Under the pieces are notes generated by a model. That model made no database searches. It was given only the letters and a program-made list of their open reading frames with translations, and was not told the origin of the DNA. 64,000 nt of DNA from Candidatus Staskawiczbacteria bacterium RIFOXYB1_FULL_38_37 (GTDB lineage Bacteria > Patescibacteriota > Minisyncoccia > Minisyncoccales > Staskawiczbacteraceae), in contig MHPK01000003.1 of assembly GCA_001822075.1 (NCBI GenBank), positions 9,437 to 73,436 on the forward strand, given 5' to 3'. Within the stretch, counting starts at the first letter, position 1. Each line of letters opens with the position of its first letter. Positions 7,171 to 61,825 of this stretch are shown here, in pieces. Both the position numbers and the translations under genes were made by a program.

Positions 7171-9105
7171 ATGGATGATTGCGATAGCTGTAAAAATATA
7201 GACCAAAATAAAATAAAACCAGCACATAGTAAAATTTGGTGGCTGGTGTTTGCGTTGTTGCTGATTGTTCCCCTGGAAATCCTTTCATTCTTTTCGGTTG
7301 ATTTAGGTTTGTGGCTCAAGCTGCCATTTTTCATTGCCATAATATTTATTTTTGGCAGAAAAATAATGGTGAGCGGATTTAAAAACCTGCTAAAGTTTAA
7401 TTTTTCTGATATTAATCTTTTAATGTCGATTGCCATTATCGGAGCGATAGTTTTGCAGAAATTTGAAGAAGCTTCTATTATCGTGGTTCTATTCGGTTTG
7501 GGCGAGGCTTTGGAAGAATATGGCATAAAACGCAGCCATTTAGCCTTGGAGAAATTAATTAATAATTCCCCAAAAACCGCCGAGCTCAAATCGGGCAATA
7601 TTAAAGTAGCCATAGAAAAGGTTAAAGTAGGAGAAATAATAATTATTCGTCCGGGAGATAAAATCGGCCTTGATGGCGAAGTGGTTTATGGCGACAGCTT
7701 GGTTGACCAATCAATGATCACGGGTGAGCCGCTACCGAAAAGTAAAATGATAGGCGACAAAGTATATGCTGGTTCAATCAACAATGGCGGCTATTTAGAA
7801 GTGAAAGTATTGAAAGAAGCTAAAAATTCTACATTAAATAAAATTGTTCAGCTAACCAGTGAAGCTGCCAAAAAAAAGGCAGACTCTCAAAAGTTTATTG
7901 AAAAATTTGCCCGTTATTACACGCCAGCGGTAACCTTTATAGCTTTAGCGTTATTTATTATACCAGTATTATTTTTTAACGGCTCGGCTCAATTCTGGCT
8001 AATACAATCCTTGACTCTGCTTCTTATTTCTTGCCCGTGTGCCTTAGTGATATCAACGCCGATTTCAGTCTTTTCAGCGCTTGGAAACGCAAGCCAGAAA
8101 GGAGTCTTGATTAAGGGTGGCAAAGTTATTGAAAATTTATCTCAAATAAAAGAGATTGGGTTTGATAAAACTAAAACGCTGACAGTCGGCAAGCCCGAAG
8201 TAACAAATATTATCCCATTTAATGGTTTTACCAAAGAAGAGGTGTTAAGTTGCTCTGCCGGCCTTGGAGAATTTTCCGAGCATCCGTTATCGCAAAGCGT
8301 CGTTGAAATGGCAAAAGAGGAAGGAATTGATATTCACAAATTTAATAATTTTGAATCAATCCAAGGGCAAGGAGTTTTAGGAGATTGCACTGTTTGCACA
8401 GATACCCGCCATTGTTTGGGAAAAATAGGAATGCTCGAAAATCAGTTTAACGGCGTTAATTTTAACAAGTTAATGGAAAATGAAAAAAATGAACTGGAAG
8501 GAGAGGGCAAAACAGTGATATTTTTAGGAGATAGCAAGCAAATAAAAGGGATGATTGCTTTGTCAGATAAAATTAAAAGCGATTCTAAACTAGTTATAGA
8601 TAAACTTCAAAAGTTAAATATTGGCTGTTATATGGTAACCGGTGATAACGACGGAGCGGCTCAATATGTCGCCAAAGCATTGAACATATCCGAAATATAT
8701 TCGGAAAAATTACCGGAGGATAAAGCCGACATCATCGTCGATAAATCAAAACAAAATATTAAGGTGGCAATGGTAGGTGATGGCATTAATGATGCACCAT
8801 CTTTGGCTAGCGCTAATGTTGGAATTGCCATGGGATCTCTCGGTTCTGATGTAGCCATTGAAAGCGCTGATGTAGCTTTAATGAATGACGATCTTAAAAT
8901 GATTCCGTATTTAATTGAATTGAGCAGAAAAACGGTAGCTAAAATAAAATTTAATACCTACTTTGCATTAAGCACAAAATTTGTCTTCTTGGCTCTAGCT
9001 GTCGCCGGTTTAAGCAACTTATCGCTAGCTATTTTTGCAGATGTCGGAGTTACATTATTGGTTGTTTTGAATGGTTTGAGTTTGTATAGATTTAAGGCTA
9101 GTTAA
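7171..9105 (+). CDS. heavy-metal translocating P1B-type ATPase
   Basis: TGEP, SCPC (CPC) membrane motif, SEHPL, TGDN, GDGINDAP; phosphorylation motif reads DKTKT; N-terminal CDSC; ATG 7171 is aa 27 of the track ORF, whose upstream part overlaps the previous gene. Confidence 0.9.
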   Translation: MDDCDSCKNIDQNKIKPAHSKIWWLVFALLLIVPLEILSFFSVDLGLWLKLPFFIAIIFIFGRKIMVSGFKNLLKFNFSDINLLMSIAIIGAIVLQKFEEASIIVVLFGLGEALEEYGIKRSHLALEKLINNSPKTAELKSGNIKVAIEKVKVGEIIIIRPGDKIGLDGEVVYGDSLVDQSMITGEPLPKSKMIGDKVYAGSINNGGYLEVKVLKEAKNSTLNKIVQLTSEAAKKKADSQKFIEKFARYYTPAVTFIALALFIIPVLFFNGSAQFWLIQSLTLLLISCPCALVISTPISVFSALGNASQKGVLIKGGKVIENLSQIKEIGFDKTKTLTVGKPEVTNIIPFNGFTKEEVLSCSAGLGEFSEHPLSQSVVEMAKEEGIDIHKFNNFESIQGQGVLGDCTVCTDTRHCLGKIGMLENQFNGVNFNKLMENEKNELEGEGKTVIFLGDSKQIKGMIALSDKIKSDSKLVIDKLQKLNIGCYMVTGDNDGAAQYVAKALNISEIYSEKLPEDKADIIVDKSKQNIKVAMVGDGINDAPSLASANVGIAMGSLGSDVAIESADVALMNDDLKMIPYLIELSRKTVAKIKFNTYFALSTKFVFLALAVAGLSNLSLAIFADVGVTLLVVLNGLSLYRFKAS

Positions 9106-35013: not shown

Positions 35014-35087
35014 CATAACACATAACATAGAACACATAACAAAAAACTCCGTCGTTTTGTTCCATGTTTTATGTTCCATGTTCCATG
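35014..35087 (+). repeat. heptad-repeat element copy A (CATAACA-type arm, spacer, ATGTTCC-type arm)
   Basis: CATAACACATAACATAGAACACATAACA ... TTTTGTTCCATGTTTTATGTTCCATGTTCCATG; its last ATG is the trmD start. Confidence 0.85.
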
Positions 35088-35825
35088 ATAAAGTTTGATA
35101 TTATTACAATTTTTCCGGAAATTTTTAAGTCCTATTTAGGCGAGAGTTTAATTGCGCGGGCGCAGAAAAAAAAGCTTATAAAAATAAATATTCATAATTT
35201 AAGAAAATGGACAAATGACAGCCATAAAACTGTTGATGACAGGCCGTTTGGCGGGGGATTGGGAATGGTTCTAAAAGTAGAACCAATTTTTAAAGCAGTA
35301 AAACAAATAAAAAAAAGTCCCGCCGCAGCGGGATCCCGCTATGGCGGGACAAAAGTAATTTTATTTACTCCGCGCGGAAAAAAGTTTGACCAAAAATTAG
35401 CTAATAAGCTTTCTAAATTAGACCAAATAATTTTTATTTGCGGAAGATACGAGGGCGTTGATGAAAGGGTGGCAAAAAAAATAGCTGACATGGAAATTTC
35501 AATTGGAGACTACGACTTAATGGGCGGGGAATTGCCAGCTATGGTGGCAATAGAAACAATTTCCAGATTAATTCCAGGAGTTTTGGGCAAGCCCCAATTA
35601 TTAAAAGAGAGAATAACAAAATCCGGCGGATTTATTGAATATGCCCAATACACCCGCCCGCCAAAATTTTTTGTTAACCTGCCAAAATTTCAAAAGAAAT
35701 TTAGAGGGGCAAAAAAATTTAGGCGGGCGAAGCCCGAAGTTTGGTCTGTCCCTAGAGTGCTCTTGTCTGGAGACCACAAAAAAATAGAGGAATGGAAAAA
35801 AAAGCATAACAAAATCATTGAATAA
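35085..35825 (+). CDS. trmD: tRNA (guanine37-N1)-methyltransferase
   Basis: FDIITIFPEIF, GRYEGVDERV, GGELPAMV motifs; ATG 35085 is aa 8 of the track ORF. Confidence 0.95.
   Translation: MIKFDIITIFPEIFKSYLGESLIARAQKKKLIKINIHNLRKWTNDSHKTVDDRPFGGGLGMVLKVEPIFKAVKQIKKSPAAAGSRYGGTKVILFTPRGKKFDQKLANKLSKLDQIIFICGRYEGVDERVAKKIADMEISIGDYDLMGGELPAMVAIETISRLIPGVLGKPQLLKERITKSGGFIEYAQYTRPPKFFVNLPKFQKKFRGAKKFRRAKPEVWSVPRVLLSGDHKKIEEWKKKHNKIIE
35317..35350. repeat. 34-nt GC-rich nested palindrome in frame in trmD
   Basis: GTCCCGCC-GC-AGCGGGATCCCGCT-AT-GGCGGGAC; codon-checked translation SPAAAGSRYGGT in the variable loop before KVILFTPRG. Confidence 0.85.
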
Positions 35826-35857
35826 CATTAATTTTTGTGTTATAAATTTAAATGTGG

Positions 35858-35940
35858 GGGCGTGTGGCTGAGCAGCAAAGGCATCAGACTGTAAATCTGA
35901 CGAGGTCTCCTCTTCGCAGGTGCAAGTCCTGCCGCGCCCA
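35858..35940 (+). tRNA. tRNA-Tyr (GTA), long variable arm, no encoded CCA
   Basis: Acceptor GGGCGTG/CGCGCCC, anticodon arm TCAGA-CTGTAAA-TCTGA, variable-arm stem GAGG/CCTC, T-arm GCAGG-TGCAAGT-CCTGC (G at position 55 is non-canonical). Confidence 0.8.
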
Positions 35941-35984
35941 CTTTGCAAAGCAAAGTGTCCTGAGCTTGTCGAAGGGCACAGAGT

Positions 35985-36056
35985 GCCGATGTAGCTCAGT
36001 GGCAGAGCAACTCCATGGTAAGGAGTAGGTCGCCGGTTCAAATCCGGCCATCGGCT
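35985..36056 (+). tRNA. tRNA-Thr (GGT)
   Basis: Acceptor GCCGATG/CATCGGC, D-arm GCTC-AGTGGCA-GAGC, anticodon arm ACTCC-ATGGTAA-GGAGT, T-arm GCCGG-TTCAAAT-CCGGC. Confidence 0.9.
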
Positions 36057-36063
36057 CAAAATA

Positions 36064-36138
36064 CATAACACATAACATAGAACATATAACAGCACGATTT
36101 TTTCGTTTTGTTCCATGTTCCATGTTTCATGTTCCATG
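36064..36138 (+). repeat. heptad-repeat element copy B
   Basis: CATAACACATAACATAGAACATATAACA ... TTTTGTTCCATGTTCCATGTTTCATGTTCCATG; ends 5 nt before the rpmG ATG. Confidence 0.85.
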
Positions 36139-36142
36139 ATGG

Positions 36143-38129: not shown

Positions 38130-38504
38130 ATGCCAAATATAGATAAAAAAATTTTAGTTGTGGAAGACACGAAAAATTATCTTTGGCTTATTTCCCAAAA
38201 GCTTACGTTGGAGGGCTTTAATGTTATAACAGCCGAAGACGGCCAAGAGGGATTGGATGCCGCAAAAAAAGAAAAGCCAGATTTAATGCTTTTAGATATT
38301 GAAATGCCAAAAATGACTGGCATTGAAATGGCGAAAAAATTAAAAGAAGAGGGTATAATCATTCCAACTATTTTTTTAACAAATATGAGCGATATGAAGC
38401 ATATGAGCCAGGCAATGGAAAACGCTTCAGATTATATAATTAAGTCTGACATGGATATAGACAGCCTTGTTGCCAGAGTCAAGGAAAGGCTTCGCATAAA
38501 GTAG
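38130..38504 (+). CDS. single-domain response regulator (receiver only)
   Basis: LVVED..., LMLLDIEMPKMTG phospho-acceptor region; no output domain. Confidence 0.85.
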   Translation: MPNIDKKILVVEDTKNYLWLISQKLTLEGFNVITAEDGQEGLDAAKKEKPDLMLLDIEMPKMTGIEMAKKLKEEGIIIPTIFLTNMSDMKHMSQAMENASDYIIKSDMDIDSLVARVKERLRIK

Positions 38505-38587
38505 GGCACGGGCTTCTCTATTGACCTCTTGTTTTGCAGGTATAAAATAAAGCAATAGGGTTAATTACAAGTAAATAATGAAATTTT

Positions 38588-38971
38588 ATGCAAAAAATAA
38601 ATAAAAAAGTTTTAATCGTAGATGACGAGGATAGTGTTTTAGTTCCTCTCAAAGACGCTTTTTCTGAAGCTGGATTTGATGTAGTTTTAGCCAAAGACGG
38701 CCAAGAGGGGTTGGATGCCGCAAAAAAAGAAAAGCCGAATATAATGATTGTAGATATTAAAATGCCAAAAATGGATGGCATAGAAATGACAAAAAAATTG
38801 AAGGAAGCAGGCATAAGCATCCCGACTATATTTTTGACCGCCCTAAAAGACACAACCCATATTGCCGACGCCATGGAAGCCTATAGGCCTGATTCAGATT
38901 ACATTATAAAAACAGAAATAAGTTTAGACGAAATAGTCCGCAGGGCAAAAGCAAAATTGGGCTTGGAATAA
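38588..38971 (+). CDS. single-domain response regulator (paralog)
   Basis: LIVDDE..., IMIVDIKMPKMDG; shares DGQEGLDAAKKEKP with 38130..38504, with near-identical DNA. Confidence 0.85.
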   Translation: MQKINKKVLIVDDEDSVLVPLKDAFSEAGFDVVLAKDGQEGLDAAKKEKPNIMIVDIKMPKMDGIEMTKKLKEAGISIPTIFLTALKDTTHIADAMEAYRPDSDYIIKTEISLDEIVRRAKAKLGLE

Positions 38972-48412: not shown

Positions 48413-48578
48413 GTTAAAGGGGTCAGGTACCTTTGATTGTCATTCTAATCGTGATACACTTAATTAATGCCAAGGGTTTTACGAGTATAAGGGTTAAGGG
48501 GAGGGTTAAGGGGTCAGGTACCTTTGATTGTCATTCTAATCGTGATACACTTAATTAATGCCAAGGGTTTTACGAGTA
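48413..48578 (+). repeat. tandem duplication (75 + 74 nt, ~92-nt period) of the RayT left end
   Basis: GTTAA(A)GGGGTCAGGTACCTTTGATTGTCATTCTAATCGTGATACACTTAATTAATGCCAAGGGTTTTACGAGTA occurs twice. Copy 2 carries the real ATG (48558). In copy 1 the same ATG is followed by a stop after 7 codons. Confidence 0.9.
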
Positions 48579-49245: not shown

Positions 49246-49336
49246 GTTTGACCCCTTTGTTCGACCCCCCCTTTGTTCGACCCCTTTGTTCCTTTGTTCT
49301 TTGTTCCCTTCTTTGTTCCCTTTGTTCCTTTGTTCA
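49238..49336 (+). repeat. degenerate pyrimidine-rich short tandem repeats (GACCCCTTTGTT decaying to CCTTTGTT)
   Basis: Read directly; directly upstream of the 49340 promoter. Confidence 0.8.
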
Positions 49337-49339
49337 CAT

Positions 49340-49367
49340 TTGACGTGCTTGTATGAAAAAGTATAAT
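49340..49367 (+). promoter_or_regulatory. sigma70-type promoter (TTGACG-16-TATAAT), near-leaderless
   Basis: TATAAT ends 49367, ATG at 49375, no SD. Confidence 0.6.
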
Positions 49368-49374
49368 TAAATAT

Positions 49375-49611
49375 ATGAAAGAAGATTTTACAGAATTAGT
49401 TGAATATTTGGATGAGAAATTTGGCAAAGTTGCAGAAGATTTTAAGGAATTAAAAGATAATTTTAATTTACTGCAAAATTCTGTTGATGCTTACGCAGTA
49501 AAAGCCGATACATATTTTCAGGAGATGACCATGCTGTCTGAAAAGGTTAACCGCCACGATAAGTGGCTTTTACAAATTGCTGAAAAATTAGGCATTAAAT
49601 TAGAATACTAA
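49375..49611 (+). CDS. small coiled-coil protein, twin paralog 1 (78 aa)
   Basis: MKEDFTELVEYLDEKF... ...QIAEKLGIKLEY; both ends identical to 51372..51626. Confidence 0.65.
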   Translation: MKEDFTELVEYLDEKFGKVAEDFKELKDNFNLLQNSVDAYAVKADTYFQEMTMLSEKVNRHDKWLLQIAEKLGIKLEY

Positions 49612-49653
49612 GTAAAAAAGGGATCAGGGGACTTTAATAACAAACAATTTTTA

Positions 49654-49690
49654 ACGGCTCAACCCTATTTAGGTTGAGCCGTTGGCGTTT
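49654..49690 (+). terminator. intrinsic terminator
   Basis: ACGGCTCAACC-CTATTTA-GGTTGAGCCGT followed by TGGCGTTTT. Confidence 0.55.
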
Positions 49691-49793
49691 TGGGGCTGGT
49701 TTTGCGCTTGCTGAAAATTTGACTAATTGTGATTATTCTGGCAGAATAAAATACAAATCATTCAATCAGTATAAAATTATAAAAGCAGTAAAA

Positions 49794-50177
49794 ATGAAAG
49801 TAAATGAACTTATGGCATCAAATCAAAAAAAGTCAGCCATAGACGTAAAATACATTAAATGGTGCCGGAAGATTGCTAAAACAAACAATGAAGTTGAACT
49901 TATATCTCATTTTAGAGAACACGCTTATAAGCACTTCAATCGGCATAAACACGAAGGAGAACTTGGTTTAAGAATTTGGTTAATTGGAGTTTTTAATTTT
50001 ATGTATATCCTAAGAGAAAAATACCCAAAAATTACCACAGACGATATGCTGTTTAAGCTTTGTTCATACTATAAAGATTATAAAAGAGGGTCTAAGCCAT
50101 CTTTTAATATTGATAAATTTATGAGAAAATACAAGGGAGACATTAAAGATTATTATTATGAATATCAGGCAAAATAA
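49794..50177 (+). CDS. hypothetical protein (127 aa)
   Basis: In-frame ATG (aa 41) of track ORF 49674..50177, whose upstream part lies in the terminator; no motif recognised. Confidence 0.5.
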   Translation: MKVNELMASNQKKSAIDVKYIKWCRKIAKTNNEVELISHFREHAYKHFNRHKHEGELGLRIWLIGVFNFMYILREKYPKITTDDMLFKLCSYYKDYKRGSKPSFNIDKFMRKYKGDIKDYYYEYQAK

Positions 50178-50622
50178 GAAAATTTTGTATATAGATATGG
50201 ATGGCGTGTTGGCTGACTTTGATTCTGAAATCGCAAAAATTGATGCTGGCACGCTTAAAAAATATAACGGTAATTTTTGCAGTATTCCGGGTATTTTTTC
50301 AAAAATGTCCCCGATGCCCGGCGCAATTGAAGCCTATGAAAAATTATCACAAAAATTTGATACATATATTTTATCAGCTGCGCCATGGGATAATTCTTCC
50401 GCCTGGTCTGATAAACTGCAATGGGTAAAAAAGCATTTGGGAGAGGCAGCATATAAACGGTTAATAATTACTTGCCATAAAAACTTAAATAAAGGAGATT
50501 ATTTAATAGATGATACAAACAAAAACGGCGCTGGAAAATTTGCAGGCGAACTTATTTTATTTGGTTCGGCAAAATTTTTAAATTGGAAAAGCGTTTTAGA
50601 ATATTTGTTGAAAAAGGAATAG
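50158..50622 (+). CDS. 5'(3')-deoxyribonucleotidase (HAD, NT5C-like)
   Basis: YIDMDGVLADF (DxDxV/T HAD motif I), later K and DD motifs; size. Confidence 0.75.
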   Translation: MNIRQNKKILYIDMDGVLADFDSEIAKIDAGTLKKYNGNFCSIPGIFSKMSPMPGAIEAYEKLSQKFDTYILSAAPWDNSSAWSDKLQWVKKHLGEAAYKRLIITCHKNLNKGDYLIDDTNKNGAGKFAGELILFGSAKFLNWKSVLEYLLKKE

Positions 50623-50652
50623 TTCTTTAACTAACAAGAAAGGCGGTGGCAA

Positions 50653-51201
50653 ATGCCAACACGCATAGTTGTGGGAGGGGTAGCAAATTGTGGTAAATCT
50701 ACACTTACGGCATCTATTTACAGAGAGATGCAAGCCAGAGGCATTAATGTGGGCATTCACGAGTTGGATGTTTTTGAAAATACCATTCCTTATATTCTTG
50801 GCATTGAAAGCTGGGGACAGAGGATAAAAGTAAAGTCGGGCGATTGGGCAAACCCATGCATTAGCCAGGCAATCGCCACTTTTACAAGAGACAAACGTCA
50901 TTTTGTTTTAGGAGACCTTACGGGCATAATAGACGGTCTTTTAGAAAAAATGGTTGAAAAGGCAGATTTGGCCATTGCTATTGGAAAAGACCAGCAAAGT
51001 CTTCAAGATTGGCTTGATTTTTTTAAATCTCAAAAAATTCCGGTAATAATAAAAGTTATTTCTTATGTTGGCGACACCTTGCCCCAGTGTTCTTTTGAGG
51101 ATGTAATTTTTGTTGGAAACTTAAAAAGGAAAGTCTTAAAAAACGATGAGATTTATCGGGTCGTTAATCAGTTACTCATAGTGTGTAATCATGCGGATTG
51201 A
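50653..51201 (+). CDS. P-loop NTPase, unassigned
   Basis: Walker A GGVANCGKST, Walker-B-like FVLGDLTG. Confidence 0.55.
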   Translation: MPTRIVVGGVANCGKSTLTASIYREMQARGINVGIHELDVFENTIPYILGIESWGQRIKVKSGDWANPCISQAIATFTRDKRHFVLGDLTGIIDGLLEKMVEKADLAIAIGKDQQSLQDWLDFFKSQKIPVIIKVISYVGDTLPQCSFEDVIFVGNLKRKVLKNDEIYRVVNQLLIVCNHAD

Positions 51202-51237
51202 TGTTAAAATATCATCCGCTTTTTTTATTTTGTTTAG
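51193..51237 (+). terminator. intrinsic terminator
   Basis: GCGGAT ... ATCCGC followed by TTTTTTTATTTT; 5' arm overlaps the stop codon. Confidence 0.6.
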
Positions 51238-51254
51238 ATTGATATAATAAAAAA

Positions 51255-51335
51255 ATGGTGGCTGACCCCCATTTCATTTCACATTTCCCATTTCCCCCAT
51301 TCTTTTCACATTATTCACTCACCCCATTATTCGCT
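51255..51335 (+). repeat. degenerate pyrimidine-rich repeats (CCCATTT-type) starting with ATGGTGGCTGACCCCCATTT
   Basis: Read directly; the first 20 nt are the near reverse complement of AAATGGGGACAGCCACCAT at 48328-48346. Confidence 0.7.
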
Positions 51336-51336
51336 A

Positions 51337-51364
51337 TTGACCTGTCCATAGGAAGAAGTATAAT
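51337..51364 (+). promoter_or_regulatory. sigma70-type promoter (TTGACC-16-TATAAT), near-leaderless
   Basis: TATAAT ends 51364, ATG at 51372; same geometry as 49340-49375. Confidence 0.6.
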
Positions 51365-51371
51365 CAAATAT

Positions 51372-51626
51372 ATGAAAGAAGATTTTACAGAATTAGTTGA
51401 ATATTTGGATGAGAAATTTTCTAATATAGACAGACAATTAGAAAATTTGAAAGAGAATAAAACAGATAAGTCTGATATGAATACTTTGTTCAATGCGGTT
51501 GACGCTTACGCCCAAAAAGCCGATGCGTTTTTTCAGGAATTAGTGATGCTTTCTCACCAAATAAACCGTCACGAAAAATGGCTACACCAAATTGCCGAAA
51601 AATTAGGCATTAAACTGGAATATTAA
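51372..51626 (+). CDS. small coiled-coil protein, twin paralog 2 (84 aa)
   Basis: In-frame ATG (aa 40) of track ORF 51255..51626; the upstream part is the repeat/promoter region. Confidence 0.65.
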   Translation: MKEDFTELVEYLDEKFSNIDRQLENLKENKTDKSDMNTLFNAVDAYAQKADAFFQELVMLSHQINRHEKWLHQIAEKLGIKLEY

Positions 51627-51640
51627 GAGGAAAAGAATCA

Positions 51641-55499: not shown

Positions 55500-55509
55500 A
55501 ATTTATTGA

Positions 55510-55558
55510 GGCATTGACAGGGCAGTTTAATGTGATAAGATAAATTATCATTGAAAAT
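55510..55558 (+). promoter_or_regulatory. promoter/operator block, copy 1
   Basis: GGCATTGACA..., extended -10 TGATAAGAT, near-palindrome TGATAAGATAAATTATCA, ...ATCATTGAAAAT; 49-nt block repeated at 56306-56354. Confidence 0.6.
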
Positions 55559-55742
55559 ATGATACAAAAAATCGTCCAATCAATTTTGCAATCAACCAGC
55601 ACCTCTGCTGTGTCTTATTATTATTCACGCCCTTCCACGAGGTTAGTTTTAAGGTGCCGAAATAATAGTATGGACAATCTATAAACACTATCTACTAAAA
55701 TTTCGACTTTTAAAACTGGTCTCGCGTGAGACCAGTTTTTTG
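55548..55742 (+). ncRNA. ~195-nt promoter-to-terminator transcript (sRNA or mRNA of a 43-aa ORF from ATG 55559)
   Basis: Bounded by block copy 1 and a strong terminator; possible peptide MIQKIVQSILQSTSTSAVSYYYSRPSTRLVLRCRNNSMDNL has no SD. Confidence 0.3.
55714..55742 (+). terminator. intrinsic terminator
   Basis: AACTGGTCTC-GCGT-GAGACCAGTT followed by TTTTT. Confidence 0.8.
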
Positions 55743-55803
55743 TTCTTTGACAAAGTCCTCGTAAGAGGCAAACTCCGGCTATGCCGGGAAAGGTTGGTGT
55801 AGG

Positions 55804-56193
55804 ATGTCACAGTGTGAAAGAATCAGTGGTGGGCCCGATAAGTTTGATCTGGTGGTTGCTTTGTTCACAGGAAGAAGGGTTTGGTTTAGGTTGGAATCAA
55901 AACCAGATGGAGAGAAATTGGCAGTCATAATAACCTCAATAATGCTGGAAGAGGCTCTGCCAGAAGTGCATATGGTGCCGATGGAGGGTAGGTATGACCA
56001 CCTTATTATCGGCGGATACTTTGTGCTTCCTTGCAAGGAGGGCGAAGCCTTCAAATATCAGGACTTTAAGGGATTTTATAATCCCGGGCCTGCATATAAG
56101 AATGGTTATCTCGACATCGAAGATTCCGTCACTGTTGGGGACCTCACCGGCACCAGTAATGATGGTGGTTTTAGTTCTTACCTTGGCGAGTGA
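55804..56193 (+). CDS. hypothetical protein (129 aa), GC-richer island
   Basis: ORF track; followed by a terminator; no motif recognised. Confidence 0.55.
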   Translation: MSQCERISGGPDKFDLVVALFTGRRVWFRLESKPDGEKLAVIITSIMLEEALPEVHMVPMEGRYDHLIIGGYFVLPCKEGEAFKYQDFKGFYNPGPAYKNGYLDIEDSVTVGDLTGTSNDGGFSSYLGE

Positions 56194-56210: not shown

Positions 56211-56240
56211 GCCCGCATCACAAGATGCGGGCCTTTTTTA
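56211..56240 (+). terminator. intrinsic terminator
   Basis: GCCCGCAT-CACAAG-ATGCGGGC followed by CTTTTTTA. Confidence 0.8.
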
Positions 56241-56305
56241 TTCCAGCTACTAAGTGCAACACACAACCCATCACGGATCAAACGCATATTTTATTGTGCG
56301 ACAAA

Positions 56306-56354
56306 GGCATTGACAATGCCTTCTGATGTGATAAGCTAAATAATCATTGAAAAT
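56306..56354 (+). promoter_or_regulatory. promoter/operator block, copy 2
   Basis: GGCATTGACA (TTGACA 56310-56315), TGATAAGCT extended -10, ...TAAATAATCATTGAAAAT; same length and geometry as copy 1. Confidence 0.6.
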
Positions 56355-56695
56355 TATTAAAACCATTGATTCATGTCCCTGAGGCGTCAGCCGAAGGGGT
56401 GGGCATGATTCGCCCCGTCATTCGACAGGGCAAGGTGGCTTATGCATTAGTGTAAGCCCGGCTTCCTCCGTAATCATAGGATAATCGTTGGAGTCCGCCT
56501 CCGCTAAAGCTATGGCGCGACAAAGTCGATGAGAGTGTCCGTAAATTTTATTTGCGGAAACAAAGGTGGTACCGCGAGATAACCTCTCGTCCTTTGAGCA
56601 TAATTTATTTATGCCTAAAGGATGGGAGGTTTTTTGTTTTTGGGAGCATCCCAAGAGAACTTTCCAATAGCTCTTTTCCAATAAGGGGAAAAGCC
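56345..56695 (+). ncRNA. ~350-nt GC-rich structured leader / RNA element, unassigned
   Basis: Hairpins GGGGTG...CGCCCC (56396-56416), GGCTTA...TAAGCC (56437-56458), GGAG-TCCGC-CTCC, CGAGA-TAACC-TCTCG; no convincing ORF. Confidence 0.35.
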
Positions 56696-57184
56696 ATGAG
56701 TACCGTTTCTTCTGACAGGTTTCGGGTTTGGAAGATCATTGTGGCCGGACCAGGAATTAGAGAGTGTTTCCGTAGGGTGCTTAGCGAGGCCGGGCGCGCT
56801 GTAATTCCCGAGGAAACTCAATTTGATCTGGTCAAGGTTACGGTTGCTGACCTCGGATTTAAAGAGGGCGCACAACTTAATCAAATTTATGTTCGTGCTG
56901 AGAAGTTAGGGTTGGAATTATGTCCGCCTGAAGTTGGCGAGCAGCTGGAGTTTCAGTATGATGGGCAGTGTATAAAGCAATCCGAAGGCGCGTCGATTCT
57001 TATTGCCATGGAGGCCATCTATCTTGCGAATGTCCCCGGATACGCTGGTCACTATGTCGTATTCTTCTTGGCCGACGAGTCGACCGACCAGTATGCCAAG
57101 GCTCAACTTTTCCGCAAATTCATTAATCCAGGCCATGTTTGGGCTCCAGATGATGAATGGGTGTTTGTCCTTCCGCACAAATAG
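56696..57184 (+). CDS. hypothetical protein (162 aa), GC-richer island
   Basis: In-frame ATG (aa 49) of track ORF 56552..57184, preceded by AAGGGGA; the upstream part runs through the structured leader. Confidence 0.55.
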   Translation: MSTVSSDRFRVWKIIVAGPGIRECFRRVLSEAGRAVIPEETQFDLVKVTVADLGFKEGAQLNQIYVRAEKLGLELCPPEVGEQLEFQYDGQCIKQSEGASILIAMEAIYLANVPGYAGHYVVFFLADESTDQYAKAQLFRKFINPGHVWAPDDEWVFVLPHK

Positions 57185-57202
57185 CGAGTAGTTGCAAAAG
57201 GT

Positions 57203-57234
57203 TGGGAGTAATCCTTTAAAACTCCCATTTTTTT
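57203..57234 (+). terminator. intrinsic terminator
   Basis: TGGGAGT ... ACTCCCA followed by TTTTTTT. Confidence 0.7.
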
Positions 57235-57268
57235 CAACAGTCCCCTTTATGTTCAATGGAGGTGTGTT

Positions 57269-57472
57269 ATGTCTCGCGATCGAAAAGTGTCAGTTCGTTT
57301 TGCCACGGTTGTCTCGCAGAATTTGCCCGACATTTCTGTTGAAAAGATGGAATGGCTCATGAAACATCCCAAGATTTTGCGCATATTCTTGGCGCCAATT
57401 TCGTCTCGGAGATTTTTTAGGGAGACAAGAGAAAAATTGGCAAAAAAGAGATGTGAAAATGGAAGAGAGTGA
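57269..57472 (+). CDS. hypothetical small protein (67 aa)
   Basis: Strong SD GGAGGT 7 nt before the ATG. Confidence 0.5.
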   Translation: MSRDRKVSVRFATVVSQNLPDISVEKMEWLMKHPKILRIFLAPISSRRFFRETREKLAKKRCENGRE

Positions 57473-57680
57473 AAAATTACCGGAATATAATCCGGAGCAG
57501 ACGTGTAAAAAGTGTGGCAAATCTCTTCCTATTTGGCGGCTCCATCTTTTTTCGGGGGAGAAAAGGAAAAGACTGGCGCACAACTTCTGCCCGTCAAGCG
57601 AAGCTATCAAAGGCAGGATTGTGGAAATTTGCATGAAGTGCAAAATGGATGAGATTGTTAAAAAATGGGAAAACCCATAA
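57453..57680 (+). CDS. small zinc-ribbon protein (75 aa)
   Basis: CKKCGK ... CMKCK (two CxxC pairs); GTG 57453 or ATG 57459; overlaps the upstream ORF. Confidence 0.45.
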   Translation: MKMEESEKLPEYNPEQTCKKCGKSLPIWRLHLFSGEKRKRLAHNFCPSSEAIKGRIVEICMKCKMDEIVKKWENP

Positions 57681-57683
57681 CGC

Positions 57684-57715
57684 GAGCGCTGGCCCAATAA
57701 CCAGCGCTCTTTTTT
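57684..57715 (+). terminator. intrinsic terminator
   Basis: GAGCGCTGG-CCCAATAA-CCAGCGCTC followed by TTTTTT. Confidence 0.8.
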
Positions 57716-57750
57716 GTGTTTGCGACGGCTAGACCTGCATAAGATGAGAT

Positions 57751-58863
57751 ACATAGGTAACACCCCCATTTTACCAAAAACTGGTAAGATTAGGACAAAT
57801 GTTAACTTATCTCATCAACATGGTATATGAAACCTATTGGGCCGCCCTCAAACGGGCACAAGCCCCTTTTGATAAAGCAGTTCACTGGCGCAAAGTCGCC
57901 AAAGCATTAAAGCTAAGCCAAAAAGCCTGCGGTCGTCTTGAATGGATGATATTTTATCAATTCACAGCAGAGAACAACGCCTCTTTAACCTGTCGTCATT
58001 TCGGCATCAACCGCAAGCTCTTTTACACATGGCTTAGCCGTTTCGACGATTCTAATTTAAAAACCCTGGAAGACAAAGACAAAGCTCCAAAACATGTCAG
58101 GCAAAAAGAAATTACGCAGACAGAAGAGAGCAGGATAATTGAATTAAGAAAGAAATATATCCGTTGGGGTAAAATCAAACTGAAAACTCTTTACAAAAAC
58201 ATTTATTCAGAAGAAATCTCTTCGTGGAAAATCCAATACACAATTAAGAAATACAAGTTGTATTACCACCCGATAAAAAACGAAAAGATGCAAAAGAAAA
58301 GGAAGCGAAACCAAAAGAAGAAACGCATTACCGAACTTGCAAAGAAACAACAGCCGGGCTTCCTCATCAGTTTTGATACCATTGTGATATACTGGAATGG
58401 GATAAAGAGATATATATTCACCGGCATTGATTCCGTCTCCAAAGTTGCTTTTGCCAGGATGTACACAACCAAATCTTCTTACAACGCTCGAGATTTCCTT
58501 CAAAGAATGCATTATCTGCTTGAAGGGAAGATGTTGAATGCCGGACACGATAACGGATCTGAATTCTGCAAGCTGTTTCAACAACAACTAAAAGAACTTG
58601 ACATTACCCAGTATCTTTCCAGGCCGCACACTCCGACAGACAATCCGGTTTGCGAGAAATTCAACCAAACCTTGCAACAAGAATTCATTGACCTCGGCAA
58701 CTTCACGCCCGACTGCGCAGAATTCAACCGTTTGCTTACCGAGTGGTTGATAGAATACAACTTTGTCAGACCCCACCAAGCGCTCGGATATTCAACGCCA
58801 ATACAATTTACCGAGAAAACATTAAAAGTGTTACCTATGTGGCCGTCTCGTGCAAGACCTTGA
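57751..58863 (+). mobile_element. IS481-like insertion sequence
   Basis: 13-bp terminal inverted repeat ACATAGGTAACAC (57751-57763) / GTGTTACCTATGT (58828-58840) around a DDE transposase whose stop lies just beyond the right repeat; no target duplication seen. Confidence 0.6.
57799..58863 (+). CDS. DDE transposase, integrase-core (rve) type, IS481-like
   Basis: N-terminal HTH; DTIVIYW..., HDNGSEF, NPVCEKFNQTLQQEF (D, D, E), YNFVRPHQALGYSTP. Confidence 0.85.
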   Translation: MLTYLINMVYETYWAALKRAQAPFDKAVHWRKVAKALKLSQKACGRLEWMIFYQFTAENNASLTCRHFGINRKLFYTWLSRFDDSNLKTLEDKDKAPKHVRQKEITQTEESRIIELRKKYIRWGKIKLKTLYKNIYSEEISSWKIQYTIKKYKLYYHPIKNEKMQKKRKRNQKKKRITELAKKQQPGFLISFDTIVIYWNGIKRYIFTGIDSVSKVAFARMYTTKSSYNARDFLQRMHYLLEGKMLNAGHDNGSEFCKLFQQQLKELDITQYLSRPHTPTDNPVCEKFNQTLQQEFIDLGNFTPDCAEFNRLLTEWLIEYNFVRPHQALGYSTPIQFTEKTLKVLPMWPSRARP

Positions 58864-60409: not shown

Positions 60410-61825
60410 CTAAACAACATCCTTTGCGCAGCGAAAACCGAGATTGTCGTATTTTTTGTCGGCGAGTTCGAACTGCTTGTAAAAACATTGGGCAGTTTTT
60501 TCGTTGTCTGACCATGAGCCGCCCTTTATAATATAGGATTTTTTTTCATCGTCTGGGGTATCTGTCCATTCCCAAACATTTCCCGCCATATCGTATAAAC
60601 CATAATAACTTCTGCCCAAAAGATATTTTTCAACAGGGGTAGCGCCCTTATTTTTTCTCAATATATTGCAAAAATTAACGTCAAAATTATTGCCCCATGG
60701 ATATAATCTTTTGTCGGTTCCTCTTGCCGCCTTTTCCCATTCTTCCTCTGTGGGCAATCTTTTGCCGGCCCATAAGGCATAGGCTTCAGCATCGTACCAT
60801 GAAATATTATAAACCGGATGCTTTTCTTCGCCTTTTCGCGGACTTCCATTTTTCCAATGCTCCGGAAAATGATATCCGCTTGCTTTGATAAATTTTTGGT
60901 AATCTCCGTTAGTTACTGGCGTTTTATCTATTAAAAACGAATCCAAAAATATTTTTTTAGCGTTCGGTTCTTCACCAGAATAAAAATATCCACCTGGAAT
61001 TAACTGCATGTCAGCTGGAAATATTTTTTTATCGTTATTGTTTTTTTGTTCTGAATAAATGGTTTTTTCCCAAAGAAGCAGAAAGAGAGATAAATACGTT
61101 TGTCTTATTGTTTCATCGGAAATCATAAGACCTTTTTGATCCTGGGAATTCCATGAAAACATAAATAAAAATTTGTCAGAAATCAAAAGTCCGTTTGAAA
61201 AGGGATAATCACTTTTTTCTAAAAATTTTACTTTTATTGACTGTCGGTTCCACGCATTATTTTTTGCAGGATTTTCGTCTTTTGGAACCAATGTGTACAG
61301 GGTTATTTTTCTTTTCGCCAATTCTTTTAAAAAAGAATTAAAGAATTTTTTCCCGTAAATATTATACGGGTCGTCAACGCTGGCTATTAAATACATTTTT
61401 GATTTTGAACTATCAATGGCTTTATACATCATTTGCCTTAAAGATAGGGAAGTGCTGAGAGTTTCCACAGAAAGAAGATTGTCATCCGGTTGTATTTTTT
61501 TATTAAGCGAGAGCCCTTGAAGCTGTTTTTGTATCTCGGATATTTGTTTTTGTTTTTCCATAAGCATTCCGTTTATTTCCTCTAAGGACACGGAATTAAA
61601 CAGTTGCTTCTTTCCAGAAATATTTTCTTTTTGCAGAACATTTTTTTCTATCAGCTGGTTTATAATTTGATAGACAGCAGCCCTGTTTATATTTAGCTCC
61701 TTGGCAATGGTTGAAGCGGGAAGCGGGCCATCAAAAAAACAGAGAGCATAAACATCTCTTTCCTTTCCGCGCAGGCCAAGAATATTTGAAAGATTTTCTA
61801 ATTGTTGGTTTTTATTAACTGCCAT
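60410..61825 (-). CDS. TrmB-like winged-HTH regulator fused to a formylglycine-generating-enzyme (FGE/SUMF1) domain
   Basis: N-terminal ASTIAKELNINRAAVYQIINQLIEKNVL; C-terminal PVTNGDYQKF, RLPTEEEWEKAARG, GNVWEWT, FRC. Confidence 0.75.
   Translation of the reverse strand: MAVNKNQQLENLSNILGLRGKERDVYALCFFDGPLPASTIAKELNINRAAVYQIINQLIEKNVLQKENISGKKQLFNSVSLEEINGMLMEKQKQISEIQKQLQGLSLNKKIQPDDNLLSVETLSTSLSLRQMMYKAIDSSKSKMYLIASVDDPYNIYGKKFFNSFLKELAKRKITLYTLVPKDENPAKNNAWNRQSIKVKFLEKSDYPFSNGLLISDKFLFMFSWNSQDQKGLMISDETIRQTYLSLFLLLWEKTIYSEQKNNNDKKIFPADMQLIPGGYFYSGEEPNAKKIFLDSFLIDKTPVTNGDYQKFIKASGYHFPEHWKNGSPRKGEEKHPVYNISWYDAEAYALWAGKRLPTEEEWEKAARGTDKRLYPWGNNFDVNFCNILRKNKGATPVEKYLLGRSYYGLYDMAGNVWEWTDTPDDEKKSYIIKGGSWSDNEKTAQCFYKQFELADKKYDNLGFRCAKDVV

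Follow-up and report, generated by a model that had tools for sequence, protein, structure and literature searches.

T-boxes are regarded as Gram-positive devices, known mainly from Firmicutes and Actinobacteria, where they serve aminoacyl-tRNA synthetases and amino-acid supply genes. The class I transcriptional T-boxes—Rfam family RF00230, with those of Bacillus subtilis tyrS and glyQS as examples—feature a kink-turn (K-turn), Stem II, the IIA/B element with its F-box, Stem III, a 14-nt T-box sequence with a 7-nt UGGN-ACC bulge, and a weak antiterminator opposed to a strong terminator with a U-tract. The translational T-boxes, such as those of ileS in Actinobacteria (for example, in Mycobacterium tuberculosis), have a short Stem I without elbow contact and sequester the Shine–Dalgarno sequence. 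They are modeled as "class II" in TBDB (PMC7778990), and the lack of the elbow contact is offset by Stems II and IIA/B, which compensate at the anticodon pocket (PMC11297988). The stretch of DNA analyzed here, called the window, comprises 64,000 nt of contig MHPK01000003.1 of Candidatus Staskawiczbacteria bacterium RIFOXYB1_FULL_38_37, an ultrasmall Patescibacterium of the candidate phyla radiation; all coordinates are positions of this whole stretch, and L001, L002, and so on are labels of the homologous loci compared with it. Between a sigma-70-like promoter and the ATG at 56696 of a 162-aa gene, here gene X, the window carries an untranslated leader of ~350 nt (56345–56695). This leader is in all likelihood a tRNA-sensing T-box riboswitch that acts by transcription attenuation and has a short Stem I.

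The element shares with the class I T-boxes all of the features named above. It differs from them by the absence of the distal part of Stem I and of the S-turn, by a codon shown from a bulge of 4–5 nt, by an extra linker hairpin, by a score under the Rfam cut-off, and by its Patescibacterium host; moreover, the gene it would control is neither an aminoacyl-tRNA synthetase nor a biosynthesis or transporter gene. With the translational T-boxes it shares the short Stem I, the lack of an elbow contact, and the conserved Stems II and IIA/B. In contrast to these, it carries a classical terminator 55–60 nt before the start codon and keeps the K-turn and a small hairpin above the specifier. Hence, the element combines features of both T-box classes: a short Stem I and a classical intrinsic terminator. 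No paper linking T-boxes to Patescibacteria or to diversity-generating retroelements (DGRs) was found in the literature searched. The mechanism is known; new are the host phylum, the hybrid architecture, and the target, which is a member of a family of DGR variable proteins.

The leader and its predicted transcription switch

The promoter of the leader (block 2; 56310–56337, + strand) features, as read from the sequence, a −35 element TTGACA at 56310–56315, a 16-nt spacer, and an extended −10 element TGaTAAGCT at 56329–56337; transcription would start at approximately 56344–56347. Block 2 is an 84%-identical copy of a block at 55509–55558, and this upstream block is identical to the lone promoter preceding the T-box in L001. 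The first-pass annotation, made from the sequence of the window, had described a structured leader of ~350 nt without a convincing open reading frame (ORF), and this description holds. The minimum free energy (MFE) of the leader is −132.9 kcal/mol compared with −98.5 ± 5.8 kcal/mol for shuffled sequences (z = −5.98), with 0 of 100 shuffles as stable. Three ORFs overlap the leader: one of 87 aa in antisense orientation, one of 34 aa, and an extension of gene X that starts with TTG; a Pfam search with them gave nothing significant, the top E-value being 0.15. The GC content had been called out of character for the genome: at 46.2% versus 37.6% for the whole window it is raised, but it is not extreme, ranking in the top 6% among 351-nt windows within a segment (55.7–58.9 kb) that is GC-richer than its surroundings in its entirety.

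A decayed gene had been among the options of the first-pass annotation, and a frameshifted remnant of a protein-coding gene would account for the antisense ORFs that gene callers put over the leader (76–83 aa in L006 and L007; 87 aa in the window). Such a remnant is extremely improbable: the pseudogene reading was rejected on the Pfam result given above, no sign of a pseudogene is seen, the indels between orthologous leaders measure 22, 7, and 16 nt—none a multiple of three—and substitutions occur as compensatory pairs. The conservation of the leader is explained by the Rfam match.

At the curated gathering thresholds of Rfam, nothing is reported in the leader region. Under E-value thresholds, RF00230 matches 56357–56597 over the full model (positions 1–219) with 52.7 bits, at E = 4.4e-10 in a local scan of 2.4 kb and E = 1.2e-8 in a scan of the full 64 kb, where it is the sole significant non-tRNA match. 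The aligned region includes the canonical T-box sequence AAAGGUGGUACCGCGAGA. The gathering cut-off of RF00230 is 93 bits, and the leader was missed by standard annotation because its score lies below this value. A cmscan search against Rfam, proposed as a check in the first-pass annotation, thus yields a full-length T-box match. The same annotation had suggested a riboswitch-like or protein-binding leader; it was right in kind, as a T-box is a cis-acting riboswitch with tRNA as its ligand, and it left the T-box sequence and the terminator/antiterminator switch unrecognized. A merely T-box-like leader with a protein or a small molecule as its ligand would fit with the sub-threshold score and with a downstream gene that is not a usual T-box target. 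However, RF00230 is the only Rfam family that matches, it does so along the whole model and with the highly specific T-box sequence, and the leader is T-box-like element by element, which makes a ligand of this kind very unlikely.

The switch itself occupies the 3′ part of the leader. Stem III (UCCGUAAAU-UUU-AUUUGCGGA; 56538–56558, + strand), as judged by folding, keeps its pairing with differing sequence in the orthologs: ACCUGC/GCAGGU in L002 and CUGACUU/AAGUUGG in L006. The antiterminator (56562–56595, + strand; −8.3 kcal/mol) consists of helix A1 (AAAGG/CCUUU), the 7-nt bulge UGGUACC at 56567–56573, which is the canonical AAAGGUGGUACCGCG, and helix A2 (GCGAGA/UCUCGU). It is invariant in the orthologs save for compensated pairs in A1, where two compensatory pairs are found. 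The intrinsic terminator (56581–56641, + strand; −36.3 kcal/mol) features a hairpin of 23 positions, 22 of them paired, at 56581–56631, which is followed by the U-tract UUUUUUGUUUUU. The terminator 5′ arm shares nucleotides with the 3′ half of the antiterminator, and the two structures are mutually exclusive. Across all four sequence variants, the antiterminator ranges from −8 to −11 kcal/mol and the terminator from −32 to −36 kcal/mol. A manual position-by-position comparison of the terminator of the window with that of L002 gives five pairs changed on both sides. Between terminator and gene X, the MFE fold contains a small hairpin (CUUUUCC-AAUAA-GGGGAAAAG; 56671–56693, + strand) that holds a Shine–Dalgarno-like AAGGGG just before the ATG. 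Its sequence is conserved in L001 and L006, and it might add a translational layer or stabilize the mRNA.

Several hairpins listed in the first-pass annotation are present as complementary pairs and have roles other than those assumed: GGCTTA/TAAGCC is Stem II; CGAGA/TCTCG is helix A2 of the antiterminator; GGAG/CTCC is a lineage-specific variable hairpin; and the U-rich tract flanked by GGATG/CATCC before the Shine–Dalgarno sequence is the terminator 3′ arm with its U-tail. The GGGGTG/CGCCCC hairpin is unsupported: two orthologous lineages lack the 22-nt insertion that contains CGCCCC, and in the ensemble the G residues find other partners.

The same T-box is found in the gap 5′ of the orthologous gene in L001 (53 bits), L002 (66.4 bits), and L006 and L007 (67 bits), where the identity of the gene X protein is 91%, 55%, and 73%, respectively. 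The loci share their gene order: a C39-like peptidase, the ~350-nt gap, gene X, small ORFs, and a TrpR-related gene of the YerC/YecD family. Assemblies with the element include GCA_001821875.1, GCA_964500625.1, JGI 3300009285, and JGI 3300025317. The terminator lies ~55–60 nt before the start codon of gene X. This arrangement bears on a further option of the first-pass annotation, an independent RNA. With its own promoter and strong terminator, the leader could be an independent trans-acting small RNA of ~290 nt ending at the terminator (56641), and terminated T-box leaders are known to accumulate as by-products. Nevertheless, the element always stands directly 5′ of the same gene, on the same strand and at the same short distance from the start codon, and the antiterminator alternative makes sense only for cis control; a trans-acting RNA is accordingly a most improbable explanation.

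Covariation was assessed on four distinct leader sequences from three lineages with a T-box-style structure of 44 pairs. All of the 175 pair cells hold standard pairs and six pairs are changed on both sides; 0 of 500 shuffles reached either value. When the 3′ partners are slid by 1–3 columns, 36–51% of the cells remain paired and no compensatory pairs are left. The comparison of homologous loci, also proposed in the first-pass annotation, therefore brings out compensatory changes, and comparative support is good—though not overwhelming, because only four sequences are available. A search for further T-boxes upstream of gene X homologs, made with strict and relaxed T-box motifs in 167 loci and with the core TGGNACC in L172 and L173, was positive in the three close lineages only. 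A motif match in L058 was rejected as a T-box since it lies inside an ABC-ATPase gene.

Predicted decoding module and candidate tRNAs

Stem I (56362–56436, + strand) is truncated, as judged by the folds of three variants, an RNAalifold consensus, and pair counts. It is built from the C-helix ACC/GGU, a K-turn (bulge AUU, then GA), the helices UCAUGU/GCAUGA and CCCU/AGGG, and a small apical hairpin. The helix 56371–56376/56403–56408 carries two compensatory pairs. The length of Stem I varies between ~45 and 75 nt (46 nt in L006; 75 nt in the window), and the stem ends a few base pairs above the specifier with a hairpin of only 3–5 bp; the Rfam alignment places 62 nt of the window against 86 in the model. 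In L002 and L006, the K-turn reads ACC-AUU-GA... / ...U-GA-GGU, which fits the consensus at the sequence level. In the window and in L001, a 22-nt insertion (56410–56431, + strand) that L002 and L006 lack folds into a separate small hairpin within the K-turn 3′ strand and converts the K-turn into a three-way junction. As a side observation, RNAalifold also gives a 7-bp long-range helix (CAUUGAU/GUCGAUG; 56364–56370 with 56524–56530) that is compatible with all four sequences and competes with the K-turn and the local linker helix. It may represent an alternative conformer and is here neither adopted nor excluded.

Stem II (GGCUUAUGC-AUUA-GUGUAAGCC; 56437–56458, + strand) comprises 9 bp, with one compensatory change from A-U to G-C in L006. 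It is followed by Stem IIA (CGG/CCG), the F-box CCGUAA, and the IIB pseudoknot between the loop UCCU and a downstream AGGA (56459–56481, + strand). This part is aligned by Rfam to the CGguuauuucCGUUA element. IIA/B is nearly invariant in all leaders—a single U/C difference in a spacer—and all of its pairs are standard in the four sequences; together with Stem II, it forms the most conserved part of the leader. Next comes the linker helix AUCG/CGAU around a variable hairpin (56484–56530, + strand), an insertion relative to the Rfam consensus. The linker helix features one compensatory pair (C-G to U-A) and one change from A-U to G-U, and its inner hairpin is still present in L002 and L006 with a different sequence.

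The specifier bulge G-UGG-(G) of 4–5 nt (56399–56403, + strand) lies at the expected position above the K-turn helix. The specifier stretch GGGGUGGGC is invariant among all orthologous leaders. In all three Stem I variants, the pairing probability of the bulge U is 0.0 and that of the flanking G residues 0.1–0.4. Two frames can be read: UGG (Trp) at 56400–56402 and GUG (Val) at 56399–56401, either of which is followed by a purine (UGG+G or GUG+G). UGG results when the last G, which faces U56376, serves as the conserved purine; when the U-G pair is assigned to the helix, the TBDB default frame yields GUG. UGG is the only Trp codon, and GUG is an unusual specifier choice in published T-box surveys. 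Tryptophan is the most likely candidate, at a confidence that stays tentative, and valine is possible, if doubtful; glycine is an unlikely specifier, and the remaining readings together are just as unlikely as glycine.

The variable nucleotide of the T-box is U. Genes for the tRNA-Trp and tRNA-Val of the organism itself were not found in the window or in the syntenic loci, and tRNAs from other Patescibacteria species were used instead. The tRNA-Val(CAC) of L111 carries A73, which forms a Watson–Crick pair with the variable U; the tRNA-Trp of L138 carries G73, which forms a wobble pair; and the tRNA-Gly of the window carries U73, which is a mismatch. In TBDB, U occupies the variable position in 46% of Trp T-boxes (PMC7778990). 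The variable U therefore fits with both Trp and Val: A73 pairs, G73 wobbles, and nearly half of the Trp T-boxes feature the same nucleotide. Three observations disfavor a glycine specifier (GGG in an alternative register, preceded by GAA): the discriminator base is mismatched, L006 has lost the GAA, and the folding ensemble speaks against it. The neighboring gene described as TrpR-like was rejected as evidence for Trp, since it belongs to the YerC/YecD family, whose function is unknown. In L138, which is from another Patescibacterium, a tRNA-Trp(CCA) gene (2146–2220) lies ~280 nt upstream of the gene X homolog; this may be a coincidence.

By analogy with the established T-box mechanism, tRNA binding and its regulatory outcome would proceed as follows. 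Transcription would begin at ~56345, and the nascent RNA would fold into a decoding module of the short Stem I with its K-turn and specifier bulge, Stem II, and the IIA/B pseudoknot. After the linker hairpin and Stem III, the choice would fall between the weak antiterminator and the very stable terminator. The anticodon of the cognate tRNA—most likely tRNA-Trp on UGG, alternatively tRNA-Val on GUG—would pair with the specifier. As Stem I is without an elbow-docking platform, the affinity for the tRNA presumably rests on Stem II and IIA/B, like in the translational T-boxes with a short Stem I. In an uncharged tRNA, the free 3′ NCCA end would pair with UGGU of the T-box bulge, stabilize the antiterminator, and allow readthrough into gene X. 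As the 3′ end of a charged tRNA cannot pair with UGGU, charged tRNA would leave the terminator to form and transcription would stop at the U-tract (~56641).

Several points weigh against a functional T-box. The scores of the window and its orthologs, 52.7–67 bits, stay under the 93-bit cut-off; their E-values nevertheless range from 1e-8 to 1e-13 with full-model coverage. Stem I has neither the distal platform for elbow docking (distal loop and AG bulge) nor the S-turn (GAA) by which the codon is normally displayed, and the specifier bulge is atypical in having almost no 5′ strand; the sub-threshold scores follow from the absence of the distal platform and the S-turn. The K-turn 3′ strand of the window and L001 carries AA rather than GA and is split by the 22-nt hairpin, giving a variant or three-way form that may resemble the A-A 2b-2n K-turns and "k-junctions". 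The codon frame is ambiguous: UGG, GUG, or GGG/GGU in the alternative register, which is populated to ~20–30% of the ensemble. The covariation statistics are thin, with four leader sequences from three closely related lineages in the databases searched. Gene X is without a link to amino-acid metabolism. Finally, the RF00230 scan of the 64 kb finds no T-box at the threonyl-tRNA synthetase gene of the same window; this genome does not, therefore, make general use of T-boxes.

A decaying or "fossil" T-box would draw together a part of these points: acquired with the cassette, it would have lost tRNA sensing and persist as a constitutive attenuator or a stable 5′ untranslated region. The sub-cut-off scores, the truncated Stem I, the K-turn split by the insertion, and the target gene unrelated to amino acids are in line with such decay, as is the position in a recombination hot spot, with 85.6% identity compared with 99.5% in the flanks. 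On the other hand, the specifier bulge, the F-box and pseudoknot, the UGGUACC bulge, and the overlap of antiterminator and terminator are intact in three lineages; helices are kept by compensatory changes, with no pair broken; and the near-invariance of Stems II and IIA/B is as expected of a decoder with a short Stem I. Decay is, hence, improbable, and a T-box that still senses tRNA remains the preferred reading.

Gene X and its family of retroelement-diversified proteins

Gene X (56696–57184, + strand; 162 aa) belongs to a Patescibacteria-specific family with the motif GLELCPPEVG..LRLQY. Neither Pfam nor NCBIfam contains a match for it, and PDB sequences searched with a profile gave nothing significant (top E = 0.53). 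The AlphaFold model is confident (pLDDT of 85) and has no significant structural match; the top PDB entry is the carbohydrate-recognition domain of mincle, a C-type lectin domain, at E = 0.47. A C-type-lectin fold is, hence, weakly suggested by the model. Homologs of the protein occur only in Patescibacteria. The family, which carries the motif GLELCPPEVGPQLRLQY, is large: it numbers 230 confirmed stretches in GTDB species representatives and >580 in JGI metagenomes, almost all of them labeled Patescibacteria. A probable terminator of gene X, read from the sequence as GGGAGU...ACUCCC followed by U7, is located at 57204–57234 (+ strand).

The family consists of variable proteins of DGRs, as follows from Avd and reverse-transcriptase genes next to its members and from pairs of variable repeat (VR) and template repeat (TR) with adenine-specific mismatches. 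In L168 and L171, the gene X homolog is followed by bAvd and RVT_1 genes, and a second copy of its last ~135 nt lies ~400 nt downstream; adenines of that second copy account for 9 of 10 mismatches in L168 and for 9 of 9 in L171. Of 171 loci compared, 58 repeat the gene X 3′ end; ~56 of the repeats qualify as clear VR/TR pairs, and two are of low identity without adenine bias. Almost all VR/TR mismatches fall on TR adenines, for example, 24/24 (L013), 23/23, and 21/21, next to the 9/9 of L171. The VR of the family is 130–140 nt long and C-terminal, the TR lies 350–500 nt downstream, and gene X aligns over its full length with members of this kind. DGRs are abundant in Patescibacteria, which also hold a DGR clade of their own (PMC8144416).

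In contrast to these family members, the T-box-linked copies of gene X have no TR, Avd, or reverse transcriptase within reach; they lack the N-terminal module and feature an insertion of eight residues in the VR-equivalent region. A TR for the gene X 3′ end was not found as a repeat in the 64-kb window, in L001–L007, or in L088, and tblastn with the L171 proteins detected neither reverse transcriptase nor Avd in the window or in the T-box loci. A retroelement acting on gene X in cis was, hence, rejected for the window and the syntenic loci. These differences are explained most economically if a DGR-type binding protein has lost its retroelement and come under tRNA-dependent control.

T-box control of a small non-enzymatic protein has a counterpart in B. 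subtilis, where the T-box of the rtpA (anti-TRAP) operon responds to tRNA-Trp. The T-box of gene X, possibly Trp-specific, resembles it in this respect; however, gene X has no sequence relation to anti-TRAP, and Trp is here just the likeliest of several assignments. Why gene X would respond to starvation is a matter of speculation: it might act in the scavenging or host interaction of an episymbiont, or it might be a regulator similar to anti-TRAP. A wider scenario is conceivable but doubtful: a narrow lineage of Patescibacteria may have recruited a T-box of new architecture—a truncated Stem I that shows its codon from a bulge, a K-turn widened to a three-way junction in one lineage, and a classical terminator—and tied a formerly hypervariable, lectin-like ligand-binding protein to the charging of one tRNA. 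In this scenario, starvation would be the signal for a host-interaction, scavenging, or regulatory protein in an episymbiont unable to make amino acids; the riboswitch would thus act outside amino-acid metabolism, and it would be the first T-box described in the candidate phyla radiation.

If functional, the element extends the host range of T-boxes and adds a structural subtype in which a short Stem I is joined to a terminator, bridging the two known classes. It would also tie tRNA charging to a family otherwise known only as targets of retroelement hypermutation and, thereby, hint at the purpose of at least one such protein. Work on Patescibacteria genetics, which lacks inducible expression tools, would also gain from a native riboswitch; riboswitches have been put forward as candidate tools of this type (PMC11665869).

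Local history and neighboring features

Compared with L001, the flanks of the locus are 99.5–99.6% identical, whereas 56305–57717 (L001 3695–5149), which spans the T-box, gene X, and the sequence after it, is 85.6% identical and the C39 gene 94.5%. L001 features an extra pyrophosphatase gene between maf and the C39 gene. As judged by the sequence comparison, the region 56305–57717 looks like a hot spot of recombination and rearrangement. Gene X differs from its L001 counterpart at 44 nt; 37 of these lie in the last 200 nt, and many are synonymous, a pattern better explained by recombination with a diverged allele than by DGR mutagenesis.

At the transcription start of the leader, the window carries an insertion of 796 bp relative to L001 (55509–56354), bounded by the two promoter blocks at 55509–55558 and 56305–56354. 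A fragment of the C39 gene 3′ end is duplicated as well. The insertion carries an orphan ORF of 129 aa (55804–56193), which has its own terminator (56211–56232) and a sole database match to one 99%-identical protein. The ~190 nt after promoter block 1 (55550–55745) feature a strong terminator at 55712–55739, a fold of z = −3.3 compared with shuffles, only a 41-aa ORF, and no Rfam match. This stretch may be a small RNA or a small-protein gene brought by the insertion.

Downstream of gene X, a conserved 67-aa ORF (57269–57472) is similar to the N-terminal module found in long homologs that are DGR targets (BLASTP E = 5e-6 versus P0045). It overlaps a 75-aa ORF with a CxxC...CxxC pattern (57453–57680), and the frames chosen by gene callers differ among the relatives. 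The region downstream of gene X was rejected as a decayed second copy of the gene, since its three forward frames gave no match in a profile search; similarity to the N-terminal module is confined to the small ORF. Between the small ORFs and the YerC/YecD gene, an insertion sequence (57799–58863) encodes a transposase of 354 aa with helix–turn–helix (HTH) and rve integrase-type domains; it is absent from L001, L002, and L006.

Further along, a 471-aa protein (60410–61825, − strand) is annotated in L001, at 99.6% nucleotide identity, as TrmB HTH plus FGE-sulfatase. The latter is a C-type-lectin-like domain typical of DGR targets; no reverse transcriptase or TR was found in the window that holds this protein. 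Other repeats of the window are located at 38130–38878, 49327–51635, 48417–48578, and 35014–36140. They comprise two diverged duplications of ~290 nt (~72%) and an exact 71-nt tandem repeat. In addition, repeats of 77 nt, 84% identical, flank a tRNA-Tyr/tRNA-Thr pair. Among the homologous loci, L025—a contig labeled as uncultured Saccharibacteria bacterium—carries an ARAGORN-predicted tRNA (172–245, − strand) with the anticodon UUA, which would read the stop codon UAA. L002 and L003 contain a tight tandem array of five tRNA-Arg genes (7735–8228) with the anticodons TCG, CCT, CCG, TCT, and ACG.

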